Assembly (NCBI GenBank): GCA_002011125.2
Contig: MTMF02000009.1
Location: 288,001 to 352,000, forward strand
Direction: 5' to 3'
DNA from: Candidatus Hydrothermarchaeum profundi
Lineage (GTDB): Archaea > Hydrothermarchaeota > Hydrothermarchaeia > Hydrothermarchaeales > Hydrothermarchaeaceae
Length of the DNA stretch: 64,000 bases
Shown: one piece after another, positions 4,329 through 34,310 of the stretch
Layout of the letters: every line of letters starts with the position of its first letter
Position numbering within the stretch: the stretch's first letter is position 1
Made by a program: the position numbers and the translations under genes
The notes under the pieces: model-generated
The model's database searches: none
Told to the model about the DNA's origin: nothing
Seen by the model: only the letters and a program-made list of their open reading frames with translations

Positions 4329-5242
4329 CTTATCTCCTCCTTTTGCATTATTTCCAGATAGATATCCTCTAATGATTTCCTTACCTTTTTGATCTCTTCA
4401 ACTTCTATGCCATTCTCAGTTAATATTTTAAGCAAATTTGGCTGCTTCTCTTCCTTCAGAATTAAGGTTATTGTTTTATCTTTTATCTCACAACCAGAGA
4501 CAAAATCAAGAGAATTGAGAACTTCAAGCACTCTTCTACCATTCTCCTCATCACTCATTAAGATAGAAACCATAGGTTTGCTGAATCTTTTTCTAAGGCT
4601 CTCTACAGCATCGCATACCATTATCCTTCCCTTATGCAGGATCGCTATCCTATTACATATCCTCTGAACCTCATCCAGGTCGTGAGAGTTCAGGAATATT
4701 GTTTTTCTCTCCTTTGACAGCTCAAGGATGAGCTCCCTTACCATTATCTGTGCTTCCGGGTCAAGACCTGTAGAGGGTTCATCCAGAAATAAAATCTTGG
4801 GATCATGGATAATAGCCCTGGCAATCGCAAGCTTCCTACGCATCCCCTTTGAGAAGACTCCTACCTTTTCATTCCTACGCTCATAAAGTCCAACGAATTT
4901 GAGCAATTCCTCAATCCTCTCTTTACATCTTGAAACATCATAGAGTTGAGCATAATATTCTAAATTATCATAGGCAGAGAGGTCTTCGTATAAACCATCG
5001 TTCTCTAGGGCCACTCCTATACTTCTTCGCGCTTCATCGTCCTCAGCCAGATCCTTTCCCATCACAAGTACTTTGCCAGAAGTTGGATTTAGAAGACCGA
5101 GAATTATTCTCATAGTTGTGGTTTTTCCAGCTCCGTTAGGTCCTAAATAGCCGAATACCTCACCTTCCGCCACACTGAAGGTTATATTATTTAGAACTGT
5201 TCTTTTTCCAAATTTTTTCGTAAGATTTCTGACTTCTATCAT
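4325..5242 (-). CDS. ABC transporter ATP-binding protein
   Basis: Walker A GPNGAGKT, signature FSKGM, Walker B LFLDEP, H-loop NSH. Confidence 0.95.
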   Translation of the reverse strand: MIEVRNLTKKFGKRTVLNNITFSVAEGEVFGYLGPNGAGKTTTMRIILGLLNPTSGKVLVMGKDLAEDDEARRSIGVALENDGLYEDLSAYDNLEYYAQLYDVSRCKERIEELLKFVGLYERRNEKVGVFSKGMRRKLAIARAIIHDPKILFLDEPSTGLDPEAQIMVRELILELSKERKTIFLNSHDLDEVQRICNRIAILHKGRIMVCDAVESLRKRFSKPMVSILMSDEENGRRVLEVLNSLDFVSGCEIKDKTITLILKEEKQPNLLKILTENGIEVEEIKKVRKSLEDIYLEIMQKEEIR

Positions 5243-5277
5243 ATTCTCTCACCTTTATTCATCCCGAAGCCAATTGC

Positions 5278-5356
5278 GTATAACGATTGCAGGTATGCGA
5301 TGTTGCCCTAGTAGAGCAATTTGGTAAGCGTAGCGAGCCGCCTAAAGTATATCTCA
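5278..5356 (-). repeat. Integron attC-like recombination site (R'' end decayed)
   Basis: Minus strand: AGATATACTTTAGGCGGCTCGCTACGCTTACC-AAA-TTGCTCTACTAGGGCAA-CATCGCATACCTGCAATC-GTTATAC-GCAA. It has internal hairpins and an R'-like GTTATAC (loose fit to GTTRRRY). The next gene starts about 36 nt later with its own RBS. Confidence 0.55.
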
Positions 5357-5952
5357 TCCATTTTCCTAGAGATTTCTCCAGTAGTTTTCGTATCTTAACT
5401 AATTCGCTGAGAATTTTTAGTTCTATGTCTTCCTCGTGAGTTTCTATTGCTACAGGCTTCTTACCTTTAACAAATCCCATTATCAACTCCCTTAATTCCT
5501 CAAATTGTTCCATCCCTTCTATCCTTATTTCAGCTCTGGCTTGTTGCCCAGAATAACCTGCGGTTTGAATTTTAAGAGTTGCAATTCCTAGTATCCTTGA
5601 AATAGGCCCTTGGGTTATGTCGATATTGGTTACCCTGTTATAAGGTACGATTCCTGTTTTTTGAACCATACTCCTCTCCTCTATACAATTTCATTTTCGG
5701 TAAGCTTGTAAACCATCGTATCATAGTATTTTGGGTCCAGTATGCTATGAAAGCGAAAGTAGCCAGAATTGGTACTAAAATACCCACAGTAATCATGAAT
5801 GCAATGTTGAGTGAAGCAAGAAAAAACACAGGAATATACCACGTTGAAACACCTAAGAAGATCCCCAGCATCAGATAGATGTAATAAAGCTTCTTAAATT
5901 GGGGTGCTGGCTTGAATTCTTCACCAATTTCTATTTTGAGTTTTTCTCTCAT
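5357..5952 (-). pseudogene. bPH_2 (YdbS-like) PH-domain membrane protein, disrupted
   Basis: Two ORF pieces join through a frameshift near 5735, an in-frame TAG near 5682 and a frameshift in the T-run near 5660; VPYNRVTNIDITQGPISRILGIATLKIQTAG motif. Confidence 0.8.
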
Positions 5953-6183
5953 GTTTATTACCTCATAATTTCTTTAAATTTAGTATATTTTACTGTTTTA
6001 ATGATATTTAAGCTTTTTTCATTGATATTTTTATGAAATGTCAGTTAAAAATACTGAAATTCGTTTATACTCATTTAAAATCCCTTTTTTAAAATTTAAT
6101 ATTTGATTTCGATATTATGAAATCTAATTGCATAAAAAAGCAAAGTTTATATATCGACTATCGACTAAACAAAATTTGGACAG

Positions 6184-7011
6184 ATGAAACCGCAGGAAAT
6201 TATTAAACTGCTCTCGAGTGAAACAAACTTCAGGATACTCGAGCTTCTGTCAATGAGGGACAGCTACCCAAGGAAAATCGCAAGAGAGATAGGCAAAACT
6301 GAGGGAGTTGTTGTTAGGGCACTAAAATCCATGGAAAGAGCAGGAATATTGAGAAGTTCTTGGGGTGTCCTAGATGAGAGACCTGCCAAGGTTTATACCC
6401 TTAGGCCAGGAATACTGCTCCTGATCATAGATTTCACCTCACAGAGGTCTCATGTAATAGACGTTGACAAGAGAGATCTCAGCATTATCGAGAGGATATT
6501 AGAGAGAACTCCAGATGAGTTCTCCGACCAGGCAAATTTTTTAAGGTGGAAGAATGGAACAGTTGATGAAACAGAGCTGGCCTACTTCTCAGGAGCTGAT
6601 GAAGAGGAGGTTAAAAGGTTCATCAGCTTTGTTCGTGATGCACCATGGCAGGTGTTCCTAGTGGCTTGCTACTCTAGAGTTCTGCGCTGGGAGAAGGAAG
6701 AAGATGAAAGTTTTTTGAAAAAAGCAAGACTCACTGAATTCGCCGAAAAAATGCTATCCAAGCTAATCTTAGCAGATCCAGAGGCCATGGAGTACAGGAA
6801 CATGCTGAACTGGAAAAGAGGCAGGATAAATGTTGAAGAGCTTGCAACAAAACTTGAGGTCGAAAAAGAAGAGGCCGAAAAATTCGTTGAGTATGTTTCC
6901 GAGCATCTCAGCGAGGCATATGTAAGATTCCACGAGCTGAAAATAAGGAGATGGCTCACATCTAGGGGGACTGGATTTGAAAAAATGGATGAGTTTTTCC
7001 CTGTTAGATGA
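6184..7011 (+). CDS. ArsR-like winged-helix regulator with duplicated C-terminal domain
   Basis: N-terminal HTH (LLSSETNFRILELL..YPRKIAREIG..VVRALKSMERAGIL); two similar ~55-aa units in the C-terminal half. Confidence 0.75.
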   Translation: MKPQEIIKLLSSETNFRILELLSMRDSYPRKIAREIGKTEGVVVRALKSMERAGILRSSWGVLDERPAKVYTLRPGILLLIIDFTSQRSHVIDVDKRDLSIIERILERTPDEFSDQANFLRWKNGTVDETELAYFSGADEEEVKRFISFVRDAPWQVFLVACYSRVLRWEKEEDESFLKKARLTEFAEKMLSKLILADPEAMEYRNMLNWKRGRINVEELATKLEVEKEEAEKFVEYVSEHLSEAYVRFHELKIRRWLTSRGTGFEKMDEFFPVR

Positions 7012-7020
7012 GATGAACCT

Positions 7021-7656
7021 ATGAATTTACTCGCTCTCCTTGGGATACTAACAATCCTTATCTCTCTAGTCCTCTCTGGGCTGATGCTCTACCATTATTC
7101 TAAAAAAAGACATATTACTTCCTTGATCTGGACGGTTGCCTGGACGGTTGTTGCAGTTAGAGTCTCAATTGGAATATATCTCCCTCTCTCCATACCAACA
7201 GACATACTCCACAATGCGCTGAATGCTCTACATGATTTTTTATGGCTGATAGGCATTGCCATCATCCTTGAGCTAGAGCGCTTCAAGTCCATCGTTCTCC
7301 CAGCTATCTGCTATTCCCTTTATGTGCTGGCTAGCGGAGCGCTTTCAATCAAAGCAGGCTTCTTCTACTCTAACATGCTAATGCTAGGTGAGAGCACTGT
7401 AATGTTCTTCATCCTAGCATGGTTCTTTAAAAGATACCATGATAAATTCAAGCGAAAAGGCGCACGCCTTCTCTGGATCGGATACTTCACCTGGGGCTTA
7501 GACAACCTTATCTTAGGCCCACCCTACTATGCTCTAGGTCTTGAATGGGTGGGCGTATTCGGGTTCCTTATAGGATTTCTCTGCAGACTCCTGCTGTTTA
7601 TAGGCTTCTTTCAGCTCATGTTCCAACCAATAAAGCCGCACCGGGAGAGAGCTTGA
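7021..7656 (+). CDS. Stand-alone 7-TM membrane protein (sensor-like)
   Basis: 211 aa, about 7 hydrophobic helices, 9 nt downstream of the regulator. Confidence 0.7.
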   Translation: MNLLALLGILTILISLVLSGLMLYHYSKKRHITSLIWTVAWTVVAVRVSIGIYLPLSIPTDILHNALNALHDFLWLIGIAIILELERFKSIVLPAICYSLYVLASGALSIKAGFFYSNMLMLGESTVMFFILAWFFKRYHDKFKRKGARLLWIGYFTWGLDNLILGPPYYALGLEWVGVFGFLIGFLCRLLLFIGFFQLMFQPIKPHRERA

Positions 7657-7904
7657 GATGGCGACAAATCAACTGTGACATACTCTGCTATGGAGAAAAC
7701 TTATTGGAACCCCATAGAGAACCATCAATAAAAAACTTAGACAACAACGTGAAGAATAACCTTGTCCAAAAAGCCTAATAATAGGAAGTCTGCAATAATA
7801 CCCTCAATCATTCGATGAATCCTATAGCTCGCTTGACTTTCTCCACGTCCTCAGAGCAATTGAGCATCTTCAAGAGCCTTGAAAGCTACTGCAAGACCTG
7901 GGCT

Positions 7905-8230
7905 GGATTGGTACCGTGATTGTACGATCCGCGCCTTTAACCTTGATCTCAGCCTTAATATCGTGGTGGTTGTGTTGCCGACAACAAACAGCCTTCAACG
8001 TGCTCCTGAGGTAGCTACCGGCATGCCCCTGTTTTTCGCTCCAGCTCATGAGGTCCTGAATAGATTAGAAATCTCCTTATCGCTGAAGGAGAGGAGCTCC
8101 AAGGCTCTATCTTCCAGTTTACCGTAAATCCGCCAAACCTCCTAAGACTGCCTTGGACCCTAGGACCCCTAGTAAGGTTATCAGGCCACCACCTAACACT
8201 AGAATCATTGAAGAGGGAGGCATACTTCAC
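7905..8230 (-). pseudogene. Relic N-terminus of archaeal tyrosine recombinase/integrase
   Basis: Frameshifted pieces KYASLFNDSSVRWWPDNLTRG..LRRFGGF and GHAGSYLRSTLKAV..HN..DIKAEIKVKGADRT resemble tRNA-associated archaeal integrases; starts 70 nt downstream of tRNA-Lys. Confidence 0.6.
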
Positions 8231-8299
8231 AGGGGATGTAATATAATCATGTTATAACTGGATATAAATGTCTTATATAGTTTCGAACCGGAAATGATA

Positions 8300-8374
8300 C
8301 GGGCCCGACGGGATTTGAACCCGCGACTAGTTGGTTAAGAGCCAACCACTCTAGCCAGACTGAGTTACGGGCCC
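8300..8374 (-). tRNA. tRNA-Lys (anticodon CTT)
   Basis: Reverse complement GGGCCCG..TAACTCAGTCTGGCTAGAG..GTTGG-CT-CTT-AA-CCAAC..GCGGGTTCAAATCCCGT-CGGGCCC-G folds as a cloverleaf; no intron; CCA not encoded. Confidence 0.97.
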
Positions 8375-8473
8375 TCTCAATGATAAAGCCTTACATAATA
8401 AAAAATTTTTGCATAGAACTGAGTAGTTATAACCCTACTGCAGAAAATATTAGGCATTAATTAGACATCAATA

Positions 8474-8692
8474 TCAGCGGCGTGGTGGTACTTCTGGGAG
8501 TTCTATAATGGTGAACCTGTTTTCTTTTAGTTTGCACACTCGCCTTATCTCTTCATCTGACAGCTCTCTATTATGAGCCCGTTTCATATGCTCTTGAGCT
8601 ATCCTAAAGAATTCGTCATCACTCATGTCCTCTGCTTCAACTTTGAACTTGCATGGAATCCCCTCGATCTTACATTCTAGCTTTTTCCCCAT
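8474..8692 (-). CDS. DUF1059-family small metal-binding protein
   Basis: C-x6-C-x-F..EH...AH pattern; AGGAGGTG RBS before ATG 8692. Confidence 0.75.
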   Translation of the reverse strand: MGKKLECKIEGIPCKFKVEAEDMSDDEFFRIAQEHMKRAHNRELSDEEIRRVCKLKENRFTIIELPEVPPRR

Positions 8693-8755
8693 CGTAAACC
8701 CACCTCCTTTTATTAAATTATTCATAAAAATTATTTAAAACTATTGGACCATATT

Positions 8756-11161
8756 TTATGCCGCTTTTATCTCTGCTTTATCCTTTCTCGGACCAAGTTT
8801 TTCTAAGATATCCCTGAGTTCAATAATGGTTTTTTGGAACTTTGCCCCCTCACTCGCAGATATCCATGTCAGCTTAAATCTTTCCTGCTCGATTCCCTTG
8901 GCCTCCATTTTTTTCCTTATCATCTTTTCTCTTTTTGCCATGAATTGATTACCCGAAATATAGTGGCAGTCGCCCATATGACAGCCGGCAACTAATACCA
9001 TGCCAGCACCTTTCTCAAATGCGTAGTCTACAAATTTTTTGTCTACTCTGCCGGTGCACATCACTCTAACAACCCTTAAGTTCGGAGGATACTGCATCCT
9101 ACTCACACCTGCCGTATCCGCCCCACCATAAGAACACCAGTTGCACAATATGCCTAAGATTTTTTCTCCAGGTTTTTCTTCTAATGCTGCGTCTATCTGT
9201 GAATAGATCTGCTCATCAGTGAAGTGCTTCATTTCAATTGCATCCTTCGGGCAGTCTGCAGCGCAAGTTCCGCATCCCTTACACAACGCTTGGGTTATTT
9301 CAGCTCTTTTTACTGGCTTGCCGTCTTTCTCCCCTATTTCAACCAGCTTCCAAGCGCCATACGGACATCTTTTAACGCATATACCGCAACCTATGCATCT
9401 CTCAGGTATAGGATGAGCGATATCACCTCCCATAGTGATCTCGCCAGCTATCATCGGTATAGCTGCCGCAGCTGCTGCGCCTCTAGCCTGAGCCACCGAC
9501 ATAGGTATATCCTTTGGTCCCTGACATGCTCCTGTTATGAAAATTCCATCTGTTGGAGTATCTATTGGAGCTAGCTTAGGATGCTTTTCTAGGAAGAATC
9601 CCTCGGCTGACCTAGAGATATGGAGTATCTGGGAAAGTTTACCGGCATCTTTCTTAGGAACCATGCCGGTAGAAAGTACAACTAAGTCGAACTCTGTTTC
9701 ATCAACTGTACCGGCAAGCGTATTTTCCCCAATTAGTATTAGATTCTTTGTTTTAGGGTCTTCTCGTATTTCCGCCGGTTTACCTCTTATAAACTTTATT
9801 CCCGCTTTTCTAGCCCTAGTGTAGAGTTCTTCAAAGCCCTTGCCTATTGACCTTATATCTATATAATAAATTACCACATCCTGCTCTGGATGTTTTTCTT
9901 TAAGCATAGAAGCTAGCTTTAAGGTATACGTGCAACATACGCCTCCAGAGCAATAAGAGTCATCTCCTCTATCCCTAGTACCAATACATAGGATAAATGC
10001 GATCCTCTCTGGGTCTTTCCCGTCAGAAGGCCTTATAACATGCCCCATGGTAGGCCCGCTTGCATTCATAAGCCTTTCAAGCTCTAGTGCTGTTATGACA
10101 TTGGGATAATCTAAGTAGCCATAGTCGTTCTTTTCAGCCGGATCGTAGATATCGTATCCCGTGGAAACGATTACCATGCCTACGTCTAATACTTTCTCCT
10201 CTTCTGTATCGTCCCTTTTTATAGCGTTCTTTTCACACACAATCTCACAGAAACCGCAGTTAATGCAGTGCTCAATATCTATTGTCGCCTTGTTCGGTAC
10301 TGCCTGAGGGAATTGTCTGTATATGGCACCTCTAGGTCCTAAGCCTTCATCAAACTCGTTAGGAACCTTAACGGGGCAAACTTCAAAACATAGCCCACAG
10401 CCATTACACTCCTCACTAACGTATCTAGGTTTCTTTACCACAGTAACTTTGAAGTTTCCCACGTACCCATCCACTTTCTTCAGCTCATGATATGTAAGCA
10501 ACTCAATATTCGGGTGCTTCCCAACATCGCTCATCATTGGCCCTTCTATGCAGATAGAGCAGTCCAATGTCGGAAAGGTCTTATCTAACTGAGCCATAAC
10601 CCCCCCTATGCTAGGCTCTTTTTCAACAAGATAGACTTTAAATCCCATATCAGCCAGATCAAGAGCCGCCCTCATACCGGCAACGCCTCCTCCTAACACC
10701 AAGGCAGATCTAGTAACTGGTACCTTGAAGAGAGGGAGAGGCTCAAGTAATCTGGCCTTTGCTACTGCCATCCTAACTAGATCGATGGCTTTCTCAGTTG
10801 CCTTATCCGGCTCTCTGGTGTGTACCCATGAGCAGTGCTCCCTGATATTAGCCATTTCAAATTGATACCTGTTTAAACCCGCTTCTTCGACCGTTCTCCT
10901 AAAAGTAGGCTCGTGTAGTCTAGGAGAGCACGAAGCTACGACAACCCGGTTTAGGTTATATCTCTTTATTTTCTCTTTGATATCCTGCTGTCCGGTATCA
11001 GAACAAGTATACTTATTAGCTTGAGAATGAACGACGTTTGGGAAAGACTTGGCCACTTCAGCTACCTTATCGCAGTCTACTACCCCTCCAATATTTAATC
11101 CACATTTACAAACGAAGACTCCTATTCTGGGTTCTTCATTTGTCTTATTATTTTTAGCCAA
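8756..11161 (-). CDS. hdrA: Heterodisulfide reductase subunit A with C-terminal MvhD fusion
   Basis: IGVFVCKCG, ASCSPRLHEPTF, GGGVAG FAD motif, DKTFPTLDCSIC, ferredoxin motifs; C-terminal CNWCSY..RVMCTGRV..GCHMGDCHY MvhD domain. Confidence 0.95.
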   Translation of the reverse strand: MAKNNKTNEEPRIGVFVCKCGLNIGGVVDCDKVAEVAKSFPNVVHSQANKYTCSDTGQQDIKEKIKRYNLNRVVVASCSPRLHEPTFRRTVEEAGLNRYQFEMANIREHCSWVHTREPDKATEKAIDLVRMAVAKARLLEPLPLFKVPVTRSALVLGGGVAGMRAALDLADMGFKVYLVEKEPSIGGVMAQLDKTFPTLDCSICIEGPMMSDVGKHPNIELLTYHELKKVDGYVGNFKVTVVKKPRYVSEECNGCGLCFEVCPVKVPNEFDEGLGPRGAIYRQFPQAVPNKATIDIEHCINCGFCEIVCEKNAIKRDDTEEEKVLDVGMVIVSTGYDIYDPAEKNDYGYLDYPNVITALELERLMNASGPTMGHVIRPSDGKDPERIAFILCIGTRDRGDDSYCSGGVCCTYTLKLASMLKEKHPEQDVVIYYIDIRSIGKGFEELYTRARKAGIKFIRGKPAEIREDPKTKNLILIGENTLAGTVDETEFDLVVLSTGMVPKKDAGKLSQILHISRSAEGFFLEKHPKLAPIDTPTDGIFITGACQGPKDIPMSVAQARGAAAAAAIPMIAGEITMGGDIAHPIPERCIGCGICVKRCPYGAWKLVEIGEKDGKPVKRAEITQALCKGCGTCAADCPKDAIEMKHFTDEQIYSQIDAALEEKPGEKILGILCNWCSYGGADTAGVSRMQYPPNLRVVRVMCTGRVDKKFVDYAFEKGAGMVLVAGCHMGDCHYISGNQFMAKREKMIRKKMEAKGIEQERFKLTWISASEGAKFQKTIIELRDILEKLGPRKDKAEIKAA

Positions 11162-11165
11162 GCTA

Positions 11166-11573
11166 TTACCTCCTTACCGGATTAGGACCTAATTCTTTAA
11201 GAGTATTAGTAAACTCCTCTACCAATTTCGCAAATCTCCCACCCTCACTGGCCGAGACCCATTCCAAGCGAAAGCGCCTTGGATCTACTCCCACAGCCTC
11301 CAGAAGCTTTCTCGTCATTTCAACTTTTTTCTCTGTTTTAAGATTTCCTTCTCTATAATGACAGTCTCCCGGATGACATCCTAATACTAAAACGCCGTCT
11401 ATGCCTTTCTCAAAGGCCCTGAAGGCGAATTCTGGATCGAATCTGCCCGAACACATAGTACGGACTATCCTTACTGTGGGAGGATACTGCATCCTACTCA
11501 CCCCTGCTAAGTCAGCCCCTGCATATGAGCACCAGTTGCAGGCAAACACGACAGCTTTAGGCTCGAATGTCAC
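11166..11573 (-). CDS. mvhD: MvhD-type [2Fe-2S] electron transfer subunit
   Basis: CNWCSYAGADLAG, MCSGR, GCHPGDCHY, WVSASEG. Confidence 0.95.
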   Translation of the reverse strand: MTFEPKAVVFACNWCSYAGADLAGVSRMQYPPTVRIVRTMCSGRFDPEFAFRAFEKGIDGVLVLGCHPGDCHYREGNLKTEKKVEMTRKLLEAVGVDPRRFRLEWVSASEGGRFAKLVEEFTNTLKELGPNPVRR

Positions 11574-14500
11574 GATGGAACCTCCATTAATTCATCAATC
11601 ATAGCAATTATCTGCGCCTTTTCAAAGTGCCGGGGATTAATAGCGCCATTTGGACAAACAGATGCGCAGGTTCCGCACCCCGCACACAATGCATCGTTTA
11701 CCAGAGCTTTCGATTCTCCCTTCGAATTCTTAATCAAGGATATAGCTGAGAAGGGGCATACTTCCGTGCATCTTCCACATCCTATACACAGGTCTTCATT
11801 AACGACCGCTGTTATAGCTTCTGTTTCTATCTCGCCCTTAGATAGAAGAGCACACGCTTTTGATGCTGCCCCAGAAGCCTGAGCGATTATAGAGGAAACC
11901 TCTTTAGGACTTTGACAGTTACCGCATAGGAATATTCCCTCTGAGCTGAACTCTAATGGTCTTAACTTCGCATGCGCCTCCATAAAGAACCCGTCTGGGC
12001 TACGGGGGACTTTTAAAGCTTTTTGAATTTCTTCTATCCCTTCAGGTGGAACTTGTGGAGTGCTCAACACTAGATAATCCACCTCTAACTCCAATTCCTT
12101 CTGTAAAAGAGCATCGTAGACCATGAGCTTAAGTTTATCTCCCGAGGTCTCCACTCTAGGAGGTCTTTCAGGGACGTATCTAACATATTGCACCCCATAC
12201 TCGGCCTGGGATTTACGATAATAGTCTTCATATTTCCCAAAGGTCATGATGTCCCGGAAAATGATAAATATCTTACCTTCAGGGTTTCTTTTCTTAAGAA
12301 TAATGGAATTCTTTACTGCCTCTATACAACACGTCCTTGAACATGATGGATGCCCTTCAACGCGTGCACCAACGCATTGAATCATAGCCAAGTTCTTGTA
12401 GCTCAGGCCTTCTTTGAGTTTTGCTTCAAGCTCCATTTGTGTCATAACCCTCGGATTCTCGCCGTATAGGAACATGCCCTTAGGCTTCATCTCTTCACTA
12501 CCTGTTGCGATGACTATTGCTCCTGCCTTAATCTTTCTTATATCTCCATTTTCCTTTACATCGATCTCGAAATTTCCAACATAGCCATTCAATCCTGCTA
12601 TAACGGAATTCAGATGCACTGTTATCATCCCGCTCTTCTCAACCTGCTCTACTAGAGAATCAACCAGTTCTTTGGCGTCTATGCCTTCCATGAATACTGT
12701 GCTCATCTCAGAAACCGAACCACCAAGCTTGGAGCTTTTTTCTACTAGGTCTACTCTGAAGCCTTGCTTGGCTATTTCTAGAGCAGCCGTCATACCCGCT
12801 ATCCCTCCGCCAATGACTAAGGCCGATGGGCCTACTTCTATCTTCTTGCTCGTTTGCGGCTTAAGCAATCTAGCTCTAGCAACTGCCATCCTAACTAGAT
12901 CTTTCGCCTTCTCTGTAGCTTTTTCAGGATCCTTCGCATGAACCCATGCATCGTGCTCTCTAATATTAGCCAACTCAAAGAGATATGGATTGAGCCCTGC
13001 TTCCTGGCATGTGCTCCTAAAAAGAGGCTCATGGGTTCTCGGCGTGCAGGATGCAACGATTACCCTGTTTAGGTCGTATTTTTTAATGTCTTTTTTAATT
13101 TGGGAGCGAGTATCATCGGAGCAGGTATATAACTTGTCAGTTGCATAAACAACGTTTGGCAGGCTCCTAGCATATTCCGCTACTGCCTTCACATCAACTA
13201 CCGCTGCAATATTAAGACCGCAGTGGCAGACATAAACCCCTATTCTCGGCTCGCCTGATACTTCTTTTTCTGGTACTTCCTGCTTTATGGATAACTGTGT
13301 ACCCCTAGACTCGACTAGGAGTCCTCCTACTTGGGCTGCTGCCCCACCCGCTTGTCCTACGGAGTCAGGAATATCCTTGGGTCCAACGCAGGCCCCAGTT
13401 ATAAAAATGCCTTTTCTTGATGTATTGAATGGGGCATGTTCGTAGGTCTTGAAATAGCCGTATTCGTCTGTTTCAATCTGGAGTATTTCGGACAGTTTTT
13501 CGGAACCTGAAGAAGGCTTCAAAGCTGATGCTAATACAACCATTTCGAACTCTTCTTGCTTGGCTTCCCCTGTGAAAGTGTCATCATAGTGAATAATGAG
13601 ATTCCCTGTCCTCAGGTCTTCTGTGATAGCTGATGGCCGGGACCTTATATATCTCACATTGTAAGTGTTTTTTGCTTTGTCAGCATACTCTTGGAATCCT
13701 TTTCCAAAAGCCCTTAAATCCATATAAAAGATTGAAATGTCCAGATCAGGCGAGTGCTCTTTAGCGATTATTGCTTCTTTAGTTGAAGCCATGCAACATA
13801 TCTGTGAGCAGTATGGGTAGTGCCTCACGTCTCTAGAACCTACGCACTGGATAAACGCGATTTTCTTGGGCTCTTTTCCATCAGAGGGTCTTATAACATG
13901 TCCTGCAGTAGGTCCAGAGGCGCTTAATAGCCTTTCAAACTGCAGATTTGTTATAACATTCTTATATACCCCATATCCATACTCTTCCAGTGCAGACGGG
14001 TTATAGAGATCATAGCCAGAAGACACTATTATTGATCCAACGTTTACCTTCACTATTTCATCTTTCATATCGTAATCGATAGCGTCTGCCTCGCAAACTA
14101 TCTTGCACATGCCACAGTTAATGCAGTGTTCTTTGTCAATAGTGTATATTAGCGGGGCAGCCTGAGGAAAAGGTATGTAAGCCGCTTTTCTAGAGCCAAG
14201 TCCCATATCAAACTCGTTAGGAATCACTGAAGGACATACCTCTGCACATAGACCGCAACCAGTGCACTTATCCTCCCTGATATACCTGGCCTTTCTTCTT
14301 ATAGTTACTTGGAAATTGCCCTCCTCACCATCTATTGCTTCAACCTCTGATAGAGTCATAACTTCTATGTCAGAGTGTCTGACAGTCTCCACCATTTTAG
14401 GAGCCAGCGTACACATAGCGCAGTCATTCGTTGGGAAGGTCTTATCCAGCTGCGCCATTCTGCCACCTATTGTCGGGCTCTTCTCCACTAAATAAACCTT

Positions 14501-29101: not shown

Positions 29102-29184
29102 TTTCGCCTCAAATTTTTTATTTAAAAAATAGAGTTTTTAATTAAAGTAAAGTATATATAATTCGCATGGCCTTTTTTTTAATT

Positions 29185-29928
29185 ATGAGTAAAAAGCTTA
29201 TTATTTCTGGGGACCGGGTTCATGATGTTGGCTATAGGTACTTTTTAATGGAAGCTGCCTTAAATTTAGGCATTGAAAGATTTAGGGCTGAAAACAGGGT
29301 TAACAAGAAGCAGCAGGTAATTGCCTTCGTTGAAGGTGAAGAAGAGCAGCTTAATGAGTATTTTGAATTTGTTAAATATAATTTTCCTGAAGGCGCAGAG
29401 GTCGATGATGTTAGGTGGGAGGAATATTCTGGATATATTCCTCGGATCGAGTATTTTGCACTCTTTTTTAATGTCATGCAAACTAGGAAATTTATTGATA
29501 TTGGTAGAAGCATCGATGGAAAAATGAGTGCCTCTTTAGGGAAACAGGACAAGATGCTAGAGAAACAAGACATGATGCTGGAAAAACAAGATAAGATGCT
29601 AGAGAAGCAGGACACTATGATAGAGAAACAAGACATGATGCTAGAGAAACAAGATAAGATGCTAGAGAAACAAGACATGATGCTAGAGAAACAAGATAAG
29701 ATGCTAGAGAAGCAGGACACTATGATAGAGAAACAAGACATGATGCTAGAGAAACAAGACATGATGGTGGAAAAACAAGACGAAACAATTCGCGTTATAA
29801 AAGAGGAGGGGAGAAAGACGCGGGAAGCTTTTAAAAGCCATTTTGACAGGGATATAGCGAAAATTTATGAAGAAATTAATGAGATAAAGACAACGCTTGC
29901 TAAGGTTATTGAGAAAGTTGGAGCGTAA
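29185..29928 (+). CDS. Acylphosphatase-domain protein with heptad-repeat coiled coil
   Basis: GDRVHDVGYR acylphosphatase motif; MLEKQDx repeats. Confidence 0.88.
   Translation: MSKKLIISGDRVHDVGYRYFLMEAALNLGIERFRAENRVNKKQQVIAFVEGEEEQLNEYFEFVKYNFPEGAEVDDVRWEEYSGYIPRIEYFALFFNVMQTRKFIDIGRSIDGKMSASLGKQDKMLEKQDMMLEKQDKMLEKQDTMIEKQDMMLEKQDKMLEKQDMMLEKQDKMLEKQDTMIEKQDMMLEKQDMMVEKQDETIRVIKEEGRKTREAFKSHFDRDIAKIYEEINEIKTTLAKVIEKVGA
29536..29784 (+). repeat. 21-bp coding tandem repeat (about 12 units, MxEKQDx)
   Basis: ATGCTAGAGAAACAAGA(C/T)xxx units; higher-order duplication at 105-bp spacing. Confidence 0.95.
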
Positions 29929-30027: not shown

Positions 30028-30681
30028 CTATCTCTCTATTCCTTCCCTGGTATAGCTCGCTTTTACTTTAGTTCTTATACCTCCTCTCACTTTGAAATCC
30101 ATTTCTATATGCATCTCTAAGGGATCACTAACCTCAACAAGGTCCTCAAGGATTTTGTTAACCGCGTGCTCATATGCTATGCCAACATTTCTATAGGAAA
30201 GTAAGTAGTATTTAAGGGACTTAAGCTCTATGCATTTCTTGTTCGGGATATAGCGGATTACTAGGTTAGCAAAGTCGGGAAGCCCGGACCATGGACATAG
30301 GCTGGTGAACTCTTCAGTATCTATGAGTACTTCTATTTTTTTCCCTGGATACTGGTAGTCGAATGTCTCCAAGAAATTTTTATTAACTGCTTCAGGCGCC
30401 TGTATCTCATATGTTAACTTAAACTTCTTTGAAGCCTCTACTATTGAGAACCCTAGTTTCTTTAGCAGCTGCCTCGCCTCTCTGCTGGTGAAATCTTGAG
30501 GCTTTAGTTCTCTGCCGTTTGCATACTTATTCGCCAGCTGTATGATATACCTTGGAGGAAACTGCTCTCCGTCAACCTCTAGATGAAACTTTTTTGAGTA
30601 GCTACTTTGGGGTATTCCCTTCTTCTTTACCTCTTCTATCGCCTTTAGGATATGTTCTCTCGCTATGTTTTTCGGAATCAT
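30028..30681 (-). CDS. queF: preQ0 reductase QueF (type I) with extra N-terminal domain
   Basis: EFTSLCPWSGLPDF (catalytic Cys/Asp), QueF motif ELKSLKYY, YEH, RGG; ~85-aa N-terminal extension. Confidence 0.88.
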   Translation of the reverse strand: MIPKNIAREHILKAIEEVKKKGIPQSSYSKKFHLEVDGEQFPPRYIIQLANKYANGRELKPQDFTSREARQLLKKLGFSIVEASKKFKLTYEIQAPEAVNKNFLETFDYQYPGKKIEVLIDTEEFTSLCPWSGLPDFANLVIRYIPNKKCIELKSLKYYLLSYRNVGIAYEHAVNKILEDLVEVSDPLEMHIEMDFKVRGGIRTKVKASYTREGIER

Positions 30682-30760
30682 GACAAATTCCCGCTCTTTA
30701 TTAGAGTATTTCAAGTTTTCCTTGCTAATAAGCTTACTTTAGTTAATGGTATAACACCTT

Positions 30761-31225
30761 ATGAGAACGTTAACAAGGTTTGAGGAGAGTAGTGAAAGAA
30801 TGTTGAAATATTTTTCTTTAGATTCTAAGATAAAGGGATCAATAAAACAAAAAATGAGAAAAATACTTGAAAACATACCAGAAATTCAATTTGCATATAT
30901 TCATGGCTCATTTCTGAGCGATAAATTTAGAGATATCGATGTAGCTGTTTATTTTGAGGCTGCATACGACAAAAAAAAGCTTTTAAAAAAAGAACTTGAG
31001 CTTGAGGAACTTCTGAGTAGAGAACTAGGTTACCCTGCAGATGTCAGAGCGCTTAATAGCTCCCCCCTCTCCTTTAGATTTAATGTGATAAAGTTTGGGG
31101 AGGTGGTTTTCAGTAAAAATGAGGATCTGAGAAGCGACTTTGAAGCTATGATTATTTCACGATATCATGACTTTGCCTACTTCAGGAGGCTTTACATGAA
31201 GGAGGCTCTTGGTATTGAAATATAA
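30761..31225 (+). CDS. MNT nucleotidyltransferase antitoxin
   Basis: YIHGSF..FRDIDVAV motif; precedes HEPN. Confidence 0.88.
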   Translation: MRTLTRFEESSERMLKYFSLDSKIKGSIKQKMRKILENIPEIQFAYIHGSFLSDKFRDIDVAVYFEAAYDKKKLLKKELELEELLSRELGYPADVRALNSSPLSFRFNVIKFGEVVFSKNEDLRSDFEAMIISRYHDFAYFRRLYMKEALGIEI

Positions 31226-31649
31226 TCCTGATAAAATTAGAAGAGTCTCTTCGGAGTTATTGAATGCCCTTGATAAGCTCAAAGAGCTGGCAAACCTGCC
31301 GAAGGAAGATTTTTTAAGAGACACCCACAAGGTTGCAAGTGCTAAGTATCATCTTCTTGTTGCTATTGAAGCATCTATAGACATGTGCAACCATTTAATT
31401 TCCCAAAACAGGCTGAGAACACCTGAGGATTACGCCGATACCTTTAGGGTTATGTATGAATATGGCATGTTCTCCGAGGAATTCCTATCTAATCTACTCG
31501 CAATGGTGAGATTCAGAAACCGCCTAGTTCACATCTACTGGGAAATCGATAACAGCCTTGTATATCAAATCCTTAAGGAGGATATCTCTGACCTAGAAGC
31601 TTTTATGAAATATTTCACCGACTTCCTTAATAGAAGTCAGGAAAGGTGA
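31209..31649 (+). CDS. HEPN (DUF86) RNase toxin
   Basis: FRNRLVHIY (RX4HXY). Confidence 0.9.
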   Translation: MVLKYNPDKIRRVSSELLNALDKLKELANLPKEDFLRDTHKVASAKYHLLVAIEASIDMCNHLISQNRLRTPEDYADTFRVMYEYGMFSEEFLSNLLAMVRFRNRLVHIYWEIDNSLVYQILKEDISDLEAFMKYFTDFLNRSQER

Positions 31650-32845: not shown

Positions 32846-32954
32846 AGGAAGGAATACTCAATGGACCCTTACCCTTGGCAATATATTACTCTATACTTTG
32901 TTAAGCAAATATAATCCATAATGTTTATATATAAATTGCTTATTTTATTTGCAT

Positions 32955-34310
32955 ATGGAAAAAGACTATATCATAAATTATCTTAAAACGAAAAACTACT
33001 GGTGGACTAAGAGAAAAGTTGAGCCAGAAGATAAAGGAATTCTAAGGAAAGAGTATATCAAAGCAATCGAAGAGATGTTTAAGTACGAGAGGATAGTAGC
33101 ACTTTCTGGATTAAGAAGGTCTGGGAAGACAACAATATTGTTTCAAGTTATCGATGATTTAATCAAAAAGGTTGACCCAGAAAAGATCGTGTATTTTAAA
33201 ATAGATGATTTGATTGAAAAAATAAATGACCTGCATGACGTAATAAAAATATATCAGGAAATTACTGGAAGGGACCCGATAAAAGAGGAAATTTTCTTTT
33301 TTATTGACGAGTTACACTTTTTGAAAAACTGGCAGATTCAGGTGAAATACTATATCGATGCCCACGCAAAAAGCAAGTTTATAGTATCTGGGTCTTCAAA
33401 AACACTCCTTTACAGGGATGCTTCTGAGAGTCTTGCAGGGCGTATAAAGTTTATAGACGTCTTCCCTTTGACATTTAAAGAGTTTTTAGAATTCAACGGC
33501 ATAGAAATTAAGACTTCTATAGATTTTCTTGATTACGAGAAAATGAAAGATTTTTACTATGATTTGATAACTCAAAAAGAACAGATATTATATTATTTTA
33601 ATCGGTATATGGAAATAGGCGGTTTTCCAGAATGGTTCAAAATTAAAAACCTTTCTTCTTGGTATAAAACCCTTGAGGATTACATTTCCTTAATACTGTT
33701 TAAAGACATCGTCAGTGTGTTTAAAATTAAAGATCCTCTACTACTCGAAAAGATGGTTAAAGAAATTGCACAGCTTTCGACAAACAGATTCAGCTATCTT
33801 GGGCTTTCCAAGAGGCTGGATGCAGATAGAGAAACTATAAAGCTTTACCTCTTCTATCTTAAAAGTTCTATGCTTATTTTTACAGCAGAAGTGTATTCAA
33901 CAACCAAGAGAATGCGGGAGATGAAAGAAAAAAAAATCTATTTCTGGGAAGAGGGGCTTAGGAAAGCATTAACGCTGGATACTGTTGAAGCCAAGGCTGT
34001 GGAAAATATTGTTGCTTGGCATCTCATAAAGAAAGGGCTTGAATCTAAGACATTCTTCACTCCATTTTACTGGAAAAATAGGCATGAAGTTGATTTTGTG
34101 TTCGATGACTCAAAACACATAACGGCAGTAGAAGTGAAATACAGGTCAGAGATATCTAACAGCGACATCAAAGGCCTGCTGGAGTTTATCGGAAAATTCA
34201 ATCTTGAAAAGGCCGCGGTAGTAACAAGAGACCTAATTGAGAGAAGAGAGATTGAGGGAAAAGAGATTTTATTCATCCCTGCATGGCTGCTTTTGCTAAG
34301 CCTACGCTAA
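32955..34310 (+). CDS. AAA_14/DUF4143 ATPase
   Basis: GLRRSGKT, FFIDE, SGSS, LAGR, GGFPE, C-terminal EVDFV..AVEVK. Confidence 0.92.
   Translation: MEKDYIINYLKTKNYWWTKRKVEPEDKGILRKEYIKAIEEMFKYERIVALSGLRRSGKTTILFQVIDDLIKKVDPEKIVYFKIDDLIEKINDLHDVIKIYQEITGRDPIKEEIFFFIDELHFLKNWQIQVKYYIDAHAKSKFIVSGSSKTLLYRDASESLAGRIKFIDVFPLTFKEFLEFNGIEIKTSIDFLDYEKMKDFYYDLITQKEQILYYFNRYMEIGGFPEWFKIKNLSSWYKTLEDYISLILFKDIVSVFKIKDPLLLEKMVKEIAQLSTNRFSYLGLSKRLDADRETIKLYLFYLKSSMLIFTAEVYSTTKRMREMKEKKIYFWEEGLRKALTLDTVEAKAVENIVAWHLIKKGLESKTFFTPFYWKNRHEVDFVFDDSKHITAVEVKYRSEISNSDIKGLLEFIGKFNLEKAAVVTRDLIERREIEGKEILFIPAWLLLLSLR

Follow-up and report, generated by a model that had tools for sequence, protein, structure and literature searches.

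What a preQ1 synthase is doing behind the head of a restriction enzyme in an archaeon, and whether the combination has anything to do with defence, is the question raised by one gene of Candidatus Hydrothermarchaeum profundi. The gene (P0001) lies on the minus strand of a 64,000-nucleotide stretch of contig MTMF02000009.1 (positions 288,001 to 352,000, assembly GCA_002011125.2), referred to here as the window. It encodes a protein of 217 residues in which a small N-terminal domain of the type found in ScoMcrA, a type IV restriction endonuclease of Streptomyces coelicolor, is followed by the enzyme QueF. The reading favoured here, with a probability of roughly 0.55, is that P0001 is a housekeeping preQ1 synthase to which a decayed restriction-like gene contributed its 5' end, and that its head is a tolerated, flexibly tethered passenger.

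The reading frame runs across the junction of the two domains without interruption, without an N and without a frameshift. The contig that carries it measures 1.9 Mb in a genome of 2.19 Mb that is 97.65% complete, and a second assembly (364 kb contig) records the same open reading frame (ORF), called from an upstream TTG as a protein of 228 residues (P0280). The clean frame and the record in the second assembly indicate that P0001 is not an obvious artefact. The alternative in-frame TTG, at window position 30714, adds 11 residues to give the 228-residue form; since 135 of the 150 listed matches of the head family begin within residues 1-5 of their own proteins, the ATG is the likely start. In the sequencing-run index a run from another study shares 82% of the sampled words of the stretch, and no RNA run containing the stretch is listed there.

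The C-terminal part, residues 84-217, is a complete unimodular QueF by each feature compared. The NCBIfam equivalog model for preQ(1) synthase (TIGR03139) matched residues 100-212 with 141.7 bits against a cut-off of 86.9, covering model positions 2-114 of 115, and Pfam QueF (PF14489) matched residues 135-213 (E 1.2e-29; 102.8 bits, cut-off 27.3). The P0001 sequence aligned to Bacillus subtilis QueF (4f8b) with an E-value of 3.8e-22, placing C129, D136 and E171 on Cys55, Asp62 and Glu97 of that enzyme. Cys55 is index 56 of 4f8b, the numbering being taken from the PDB titles of 4fgc (C55A) and 5udg; E97Q also comes from PDB titles, and Asp62 is a residue which we take to be part of the QueF catalytic set. 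All three are invariant over the 16 QueF rows of alignment A2, P0001 being one row, and all 25 invariant columns of this alignment are kept in P0001. The QueF half of an AlphaFold2 (AF2) model matched 4f8b_B with an E-value of 2e-13, a target TM-score (TMt) of 0.77, a root-mean-square deviation (rmsd) of 1.3 A over 117 columns and 40% identity. At the position of B. subtilis His96, presumably an important residue of QueF, P0001 has Y170. This column of A2 holds Tyr in eight rows, His in seven and Gln in one, and because the stand-alone homologues vary alike (Tyr in 7 of the 15 other rows) the tyrosine is not specific to the fusion. The segment 152-ELKSLKYY-159 aligns to the NADPH motif from Glu78 to Tyr85 (ESKSLKLY in 4f8b) and conforms to the pattern E(S/L)K(S/A)hK(L/Y)(Y/F/W), which is given in PMC10516641 and separates QueF from QueF-L. 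The initial annotation had described this half as a complete type I QueF with catalytic Cys/Asp/Glu and the ELKSLKYY motif, and the equivalog score and the 4f8b alignment bear it out. From these sequence features we infer that the C-terminal 134 residues reduce free preQ0 to preQ1 with NADPH.

Two characterized enzymes frame this assignment. Unimodular QueF is a homodecamer, and P0001 resembles the B. subtilis representative YkvM (4f8b, 4fgc, 5udg) in its T-fold, its NADPH motif, its equivalents of Cys55, Asp62 and Glu97 and a score above the equivalog cut-off, as well as in a genome context with a supply of preQ0 and with Tgt, QueA and QueH to use the preQ1. It differs in its archaeal host and in the 83-residue N-terminal domain, which has no counterpart in the other QueF sequences compared. 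QueF-L, the archaeosine synthase of Crenarchaeota (5jyx, 5k0p), is likewise an archaeal T-fold paralogue that handles the preQ0 nitrile through a Cys thioimide, and since it acts on preQ0 already in tRNA it offers a precedent for a nucleic-acid-directed enzyme. However, according to PMC10516641 QueF-L has neither the NADPH motif nor reductase activity, whereas P0001 has the motif. The P0001 model matched 5jyx with 22% identity (E 9e-8), far below its match to QueF.

P0001 is the sole QueF-family gene of the source genome (G000). Judged by gene content, this genome encodes the bacterial-type pathway to queuosine in full. On contig C8, which measures 135 kb and has a GC content of 0.392 (main contig 0.391), the genes of Tgt (TIGR00430, 472.3 bits, cut-off 306.75) and QueA (408.2 bits, cut-off 324) are direct neighbours. 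QueH (231.5 bits), QueC (190.7 bits, cut-off 150.3) and QueD (96.7 bits, cut-off 89.25) were also found, and between QueC and QueD lies a QueE-like radical-SAM gene whose best score, 52 bits, is below all QueE cut-offs. An ORF of 183 residues (C9:1132909-1133460; positions 910-1461 of locus L041) sits between QueC and the QueE-like gene and overlaps both; it has no NCBIfam match and may be a member of the preQ0 operon. A weak QueG match at C9:1585889-1586503 (TIGR00276, 78 bits against a cut-off of 200) is interrupted by a TGA and a TAG; this segment, possibly a broken ferredoxin-like gene, probably has nothing to do with queuosine. The archaeosine genes, which mark the genome as archaeal, are present as well, with arcTGT at 588.7 bits (TIGR00432, cut-off 350). 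ArcS is split into two adjacent ORFs (C9:47845-49820, locus L005), a TGT-like N-terminal part of 292 residues and a DUF5591+PUA part of 308 residues, which each match half of NF040592 (131.5 and 340.3 bits, respectively).

The same pathway is common across the phylum, as far as gene content tells. Among the 38 genomes compared (G000 and 37 others, G001-G037) QueA is present in 35 and Tgt scores above its cut-off in 33, and eight relatives have a stand-alone QueF at most about 0.5 kb away from QueA. Twenty of the 38 gave no match to the P0001 query and two more matched it in the head only. Since QueF is thus unmatched in many genomes bearing Tgt and QueA, salvage of queuosine precursors may be common in the phylum. 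In print, bacterial-type queuosine genes of archaea have been described for 34 genomes, of DPANN and Methanosarcinales (PMC8204110); a search of paper listings and abstracts for queuosine in Hydrothermarchaeota found no description and returned one unrelated paper. In the source genome, preQ1 made by P0001 would be passed on by the bacterial-type Tgt, QueA and QueH to give queuosine at tRNA position 34, and the parallel arcTGT/ArcS route would spend preQ0 on archaeosine. The functional proposal of the initial annotation had started from an archaeon with no use for preQ1. With Tgt, QueA, QueH, QueC, QueD and a QueE-like gene in the genome this premise, on which the proposal rested, is wrong; the domain identities that accompanied it stood.

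The N-terminal domain gave no match in a local Pfam scan of residues 1-95; its precomputed label in P0001 is PF26345.1, which we take to be the ScoMcrA head family. A search of the PDB with the single head sequence returned matches at chance level only, to ribosomal protein L1 and to a protein designed de novo. A profile (A1) made from the heads of ten relatives found by region search matched residues 4-96 of ScoMcrA (5zmm_A) with an E-value of 1.2e-4. An AF2 model of the head, built on 33 sequences, had a predicted local distance difference test score (pLDDT) of 87.6, and the ScoMcrA chains were its only credible Foldseek matches (5zmm_B, probability 1.0, query TM-score (TMq) 0.63, 27% identity). 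When the head was compared by VIA-align with 48,161 representative chains, 5zmm_A was the only match with Z at or above 5 (Z 8.7, rmsd 3.4 A, 74 residues). The next match had Z 4.2, and weak winged-helix and TetR-type helix-turn-helix matches at Z of about 3-4 fall in the range that the tool classes as common arrangements. The fold signature of the head is intact, since it scores 115.2 bits against a family hidden Markov model (HMM) built without P0001. Residues 1-83 are a true homologue of the N-terminal head domain of ScoMcrA; the resemblance to modification-dependent restriction enzymes proposed in the initial annotation is upheld by profile and fold alike.

PMC6224610 describes the head of ScoMcrA as small, flexibly attached and without a known function. 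As in ScoMcrA, the head of P0001 stands at the extreme N-terminus, and its attachment is likewise predicted to be flexible, by the low pLDDT of the hinge described below. The two proteins differ in what follows, SBD, SRA and HNH domains in ScoMcrA and a metabolic enzyme in P0001, and in the residues of the head itself. Among 159 other family members 25 columns of the head are at least 85% conserved, and P0001 deviates at six of them (R27S, K44R, S48Q, G65 deleted, G66S and N70R); deviation at six or more conserved columns was seen in only 3 of the 160 head-family sequences. In P0001 both R27 and the SGG motif are replaced; ScoMcrA keeps them, as do at least 95% of the sampled family members. 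Pfam and NCBIfam scans detected neither a nuclease nor a McrB-type NTPase in P0001, QueF alone following the head; no domain of the kind that reads modified DNA, such as SRA, SBD or EVE, came up in the Pfam scans, and P0001 matched no PADLOC family. P0001 is a structural member of the head family without the conserved residues of that family, and it is no restriction enzyme.

An exhaustive profile search for the head family gave 3131 representatives at E ≤ 1e-3, 1312 of them at E ≤ 1e-10. Partner domains were surveyed in 150 listed representatives of the 3131; 47 shorter than 190 residues were left out because they have no room for a head and a QueF, and the other 103 were scanned with Pfam at E ≤ 1e-5, with overlapping counts since some proteins carry two domains. 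HNH was the partner in 12 of the 103, HNH_2 in 6, AAA_5 (McrB-type) in 6, CN_hydrolase in 4, EVE and DUF7255 in 2 each, and Schlafen/AlbA_2, NucS_C / PD-(D/E)XK, DUF3427 and PdxA (its last 105 model positions only) in 1 each; 70 had no Pfam family and none had QueF. These partners indicate that the head is an N-terminal module mainly of restriction-like proteins.

A region search with the N-terminal part of P0001 found ten relatives with heads 42-64% identical, all with other C-termini. The nearest (P0121-P0127, P0132 and P0208; heads 54-64% identical) are head-Zn-ribbon-DUF7255-like proteins, which share with P0001 the N-terminal MIPKNI start and the end of the domain and differ in carrying a C-terminal CxxC pair and an EFDExQH block where P0001 has QueF. 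Their C-terminal domain matched DUF7255 weakly (13-24 bits, below the cut-off) and gave no PDB match in a profile search; it is presumably a nuclease. The nearest heads sit in solitary genes, one of them among housekeeping genes (metagenome locus L039). A decayed two-gene system formed by a head-nuclease gene and the AAA_14/DUF4143 ATPase of the window was considered and rejected, the 457-residue neighbour in L039 being a cation-efflux protein unrelated to the ATPase. In genome G004 (locus L021, 1306-1779, minus strand) an ORF of 157 residues comprises a head and a CxxC segment and ends before the nuclease-like block, so that it represents a truncated head-nuclease gene; it adjoins a gene read by eye as encoding a PIN-domain protein. 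In P0254, a head-family representative of 201 residues, the head is followed by a PdxA fragment that spans only the final 105 model positions, too little for a whole enzyme. Both are accidental products of the head elsewhere, and they count in favour of a passenger head in P0001.

The fusion of this head to QueF is a singleton in everything searched. No match in the 37 other genomes of the phylum spanned both domains (15 had QueF only and two the head only), and the best 120 of 2089 full-length matches cover at most 64% of P0001. A junction-spanning search, a method limited by its word index, recovered P0001 alone among six candidates, and a pattern scan of metagenome contigs found none of six loci fused (four QueF-only, two head-only). 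A search of paper listings and abstracts found no description of a head-QueF architecture, in line with the statement of the initial annotation that none was known. Two outcomes that the initial annotation had listed as telling against its own proposal, a singleton fusion and a full tRNA-queuosine pathway, were thus found; the third, an internal start for QueF, was not, there being no ATG or GTG at the junction.

The position of the junction is sharply defined. In alignment A2, S84 occupies the column of the start Met of stand-alone QueFs, the residues after that Met (KKF K/Q/E ...) fall on residues 85-88, and the head of P0001 ends in the same terminal motif as its relative P0121, indicating that the last residue of the head was joined to codon 2 of QueF without a linker. 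By reading of the sequence, the first in-frame ATG, GTG or TTG after codon 1 is the TTG at codon 104. Since the junction offers no canonical start, QueF is made with the head attached. A full-length AF2 model, built on composite alignment A7, had a pLDDT of 87.4 and a predicted TM-score (pTM) of 0.57, with residues 85-90 below a pLDDT of 50, which suggests two well-folded domains on a disordered hinge with no confident packing between them. That QueF is also, or only, made alone from the TTG at codon 104, the head-bearing form being minor, has but a slight chance of being right. After codon 1, no other in-frame codon of these three kinds occurs before Met190, and the TIGR03139 match begins close to this TTG, at residue 100. 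However, its product would lose about 20 residues present in every close stand-alone homologue of A2, and with them the first positions of the family model.

The QueF half has its own relatives. It is 66-68% identical to the stand-alone QueFs of G023, G035 and G037 and 76% identical to a metagenomic QueF, compared with 35-47% for QueA-linked QueFs, including that of G001, a member of its own family. The QueFs of G023, G035 and G037 adjoin ribosomal-protein (S3Ae-type, S2) and TruD genes, identified by reading translations only. The QueF row of G023, a genome of the same order, is identical in A2 to that of P0005, which one source attributes to a Candidatus Hydrothermarchaeales archaeon. A tree of 28 chosen rows set a QueA-linked group (G001, G012, G015, G016 and G020) apart from a group of the fusion, G023, G035, G037 and bacterial QueFs. 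The support for this split was moderate (87/84), the second group was poorly resolved and two rows stood on long branches. The loci examined (L013-L023) likewise fall into two QueF lineages in the phylum, one linked to QueA and one beside ribosomal-protein/TruD genes, with both in G035 and the second only in G000. No QueF lies beside QueA in G000, which consequently appears to rely on the second lineage.

As the most likely source of the head we propose a solitary head-Zn-ribbon-nuclease gene like those of the relatives, the end of the head having probably been joined to the second codon of queF by an in-frame deletion or recombination. Such an event would have brought a promoter and a start codon and discarded the nuclease, and the head would now hang on QueF by the flexible hinge as a passenger, with its ancestral binding surface eroded. 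Several observations weigh against this history. The junction has no canonical start from which QueF could be made by itself, so any activity it has is with the head attached. The fold of the head has not decayed: pLDDT is at least 90 at 70 of 95 residues, the frame is open and the family HMM returns 115 bits. An intact fold fits a very recent event and equally well retained selection. The net charge of the head is +6 over 83 residues (family mean +2.45, standard deviation 3.5), a value that would suit nucleic-acid binding, and the changed residues could reflect a new specificity and not a loss. The GC content at third codon positions (GC3) is 0.482 in the head and 0.433 in QueF, compared with 0.359 (standard deviation 0.077) in the ORFs of the genome; base and codon composition thus do not point to a recent acquisition, although on such short stretches the power of the test is low. 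Finally, from the 82% of words shared with the run of another study, the fused gene may occur in more than one population.

Several of these points would also be expected if the fusion were new but functional, with a head that binds nucleic acid, tRNA or a partner such as Tgt and so places QueF where preQ1 is used, or on preQ0 already in nucleic acid in the manner of QueF-L. We regard this as possible but rather unlikely. The head is intact in fold and basic, QueF is obligately made with it, the head family occurs on DNA-acting enzymes (the HNH, HNH_2 and AAA_5 proteins of the survey), echoes of winged-helix and TetR-type folds were seen, and the other study's run may represent a second occurrence. 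However, the fusion is a singleton, the most conserved residues of the head are lost, the model predicts no contact between head and QueF, the winged-helix matches do not rise above common arrangements, and P0001 has the full free-base NADPH motif that QueF-L lacks; even in ScoMcrA the head has no known function (PMC6224610). A bolder proposal, which we hold to be improbable, makes the head a retargeting module and P0001 the first nitrile reductase delivered to nucleic acid or to the transglycosylase. preQ0 already inserted by arcTGT, by Tgt or by the DpdA-like/ArcS2-like pair of contig C3 (described below) could then be reduced in place; alternatively preQ1 could be channelled to Tgt, with archaeosine, queuosine and possibly DNA modification competing for one preQ0 pool. 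The changed surface at R27, SGG and N70 would in that case mark a new specificity, not decay.

A role in defence, in which preQ0 would be drained away from viral dPreQ0/dG+ DNA or the head would aim the enzyme at modified viral DNA, seems quite improbable. The head is of a type characteristic of type IV restriction-like proteins, the MntA/HepT pair and an ATPase matching the PADLOC family PDC-S01 adjoin the gene, and 7-deazaguanines including preQ1 are known in viral DNA (PMC10516641). Yet P0001 is the sole QueF and is needed by the queuosine pathway of the genome itself, it has no PADLOC match, no nuclease or other effector is attached to it, and it is again a singleton; its closest stand-alone homologues adjoin, as read by eye, apparent ribosomal-protein/TruD genes and not defence genes, and its surroundings amount to a small toxin-antitoxin/ATPase islet between housekeeping and polysaccharide genes. 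Nothing found here ties the gene to dpdA or to DNA modification. It is very improbable, lastly, that P0001 is a chimera of assembly or gene calling, or a dead protein in a cell that salvages queuosine precursors. A singleton is what such an error would give, and the 20 genomes unmatched and the two matched in the head only nearly all have Tgt and QueA. However, the gene lies inside a 1.9 Mb contig, the same ORF stands in a second assembly, the frame is open over the junction with neither N nor frameshift, every invariant QueF residue is kept, and the index lists a run of a second study with 82% of the words. A housekeeping QueF with a passenger head thus remains the reading that we favour.

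The coordinates of P0001, its parts, its neighbours and the queuosine genes are collected in Table 1. The initial annotation had the gene abutting a toxin-antitoxin/ATPase block, and this is so: the MntA/HepT pair of type VII, transcribed divergently from P0001, and the AAA_14/DUF4143 ATPase form the islet referred to above. The ATPase, which matches a PADLOC candidate defence family, lies 1.3 kb from MntA/HepT, with small unassigned ORFs between. On the other side of P0001, at 29167-29928 of the window (plus strand), an ORF of 253 residues begins with an acylphosphatase-like part (37 bits in Pfam) and continues with a long series of near-perfect seven-residue repeats (MLEKQDK / MIEKQDT); the opposite strand of the same segment holds a long shadow ORF.

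Table 1. Positions of the head-QueF gene, its parts and neighbours (window coordinates) and of the queuosine genes (coordinates on contigs C8 and C9)
Feature	Position	Strand	Basis
Whole head-QueF fusion ORF (P0001), 217 residues + stop	30028..30681	-	Open frame from ATG; stop 30028-30030, coding 30031-30681
ScoMcrA-type head domain, residues 1-83	30433..30681	-	Profile, fold and family-HMM matches
Junction and hinge, residues 84-90	30412..30432	-	Alignment A2; full-length AF2 model
Unimodular QueF (preQ1 synthase, T-fold), residues 84-217	30031..30432	-	TIGR03139, PF14489, 4f8b match
Codon of Cys129, predicted thioimide-forming catalytic Cys	30295..30297	-	Alignment to 4f8b
Codons 152-159, ELKSLKYY, QueF NADPH-binding motif	30205..30228	-	Alignment to ESKSLKLY of 4f8b
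MntA, type VII toxin-antitoxin	30761-31225	+	NF047752 63.3 bits (cut-off 60); Pfam Polbeta
HepT, type VII toxin-antitoxin	31209-31649	+	NF047751 117.2 bits (cut-off 60); Pfam HepT-like
AAA_14/DUF4143 ATPase	32949-34310	+	Pfam AAA_14 111 bits, DUF4143 81.4 bits; PADLOC PDC-S01 232.3 bits
Bacterial-type queuosine genes of the source genome	C8:6824-8897, C9:846070-846588, C9:1132235-1134508		

No TGT-family gene was found near P0001. The genome has four, at 6.8 kb of C8, at 1890 kb and 49 kb of C9 and at 5 kb of C3. The last belongs to a minus-strand operon of contig C3 (about 5000-13248; loci L004 and L033) with a PIN gene at its flank, in the order of a 229-residue protein with no Pfam match, a HerA-type ATPase (DUF87, 86 bits), a 1408-residue protein with no Pfam match, a DUF5591 protein and a TGT-like protein. 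The fourth of these (DUF5591, 59.9 bits) is the counterpart of the ArcS core, which PMC10516641 names 'ArcS2' in the dG+ pathways of phages. The TGT-like protein scores 84.7 bits with Pfam TGT, and 47 and 104 bits with the DpdA and arcTGT models, both below the cut-off. From these matches the operon, which is distinct from the tRNA enzymes, looks like a candidate cluster for defence or for the modification of nucleic acids with 7-deazaguanines. Viral QueFs occur in a setting of 7-deazaguanine DNA modification, the connection that the initial annotation had in view; as described in PMC10516641, they are encoded on the virus together with DpdA and preQ0 genes and act on the free base. P0001, in contrast, lies on the chromosome with no dpdA adjacent to it; the sole DpdA-like gene of the genome is on another contig.

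These results carry a caution for annotation, since a gene with a defence-type domain and toxin-antitoxin neighbours need not be a defence gene, and here a genome-wide check of the pathway changes the reading of the head-QueF gene. For the head family, P0001 is a clean natural example of the widespread ScoMcrA head domain moving between partners, and the fusion fixes the boundary of the head to the residue (residue 83). If it were true that the head retargets QueF, a new coupling of 7-deazaguanine chemistry to nucleic acids would follow. Two findings made along the way may deserve more attention than the fusion itself, the TGT-like/DUF5591/HerA operon of contig C3 and the near-universal presence of a bacterial queuosine pathway beside archaeosine genes in an archaeal phylum.

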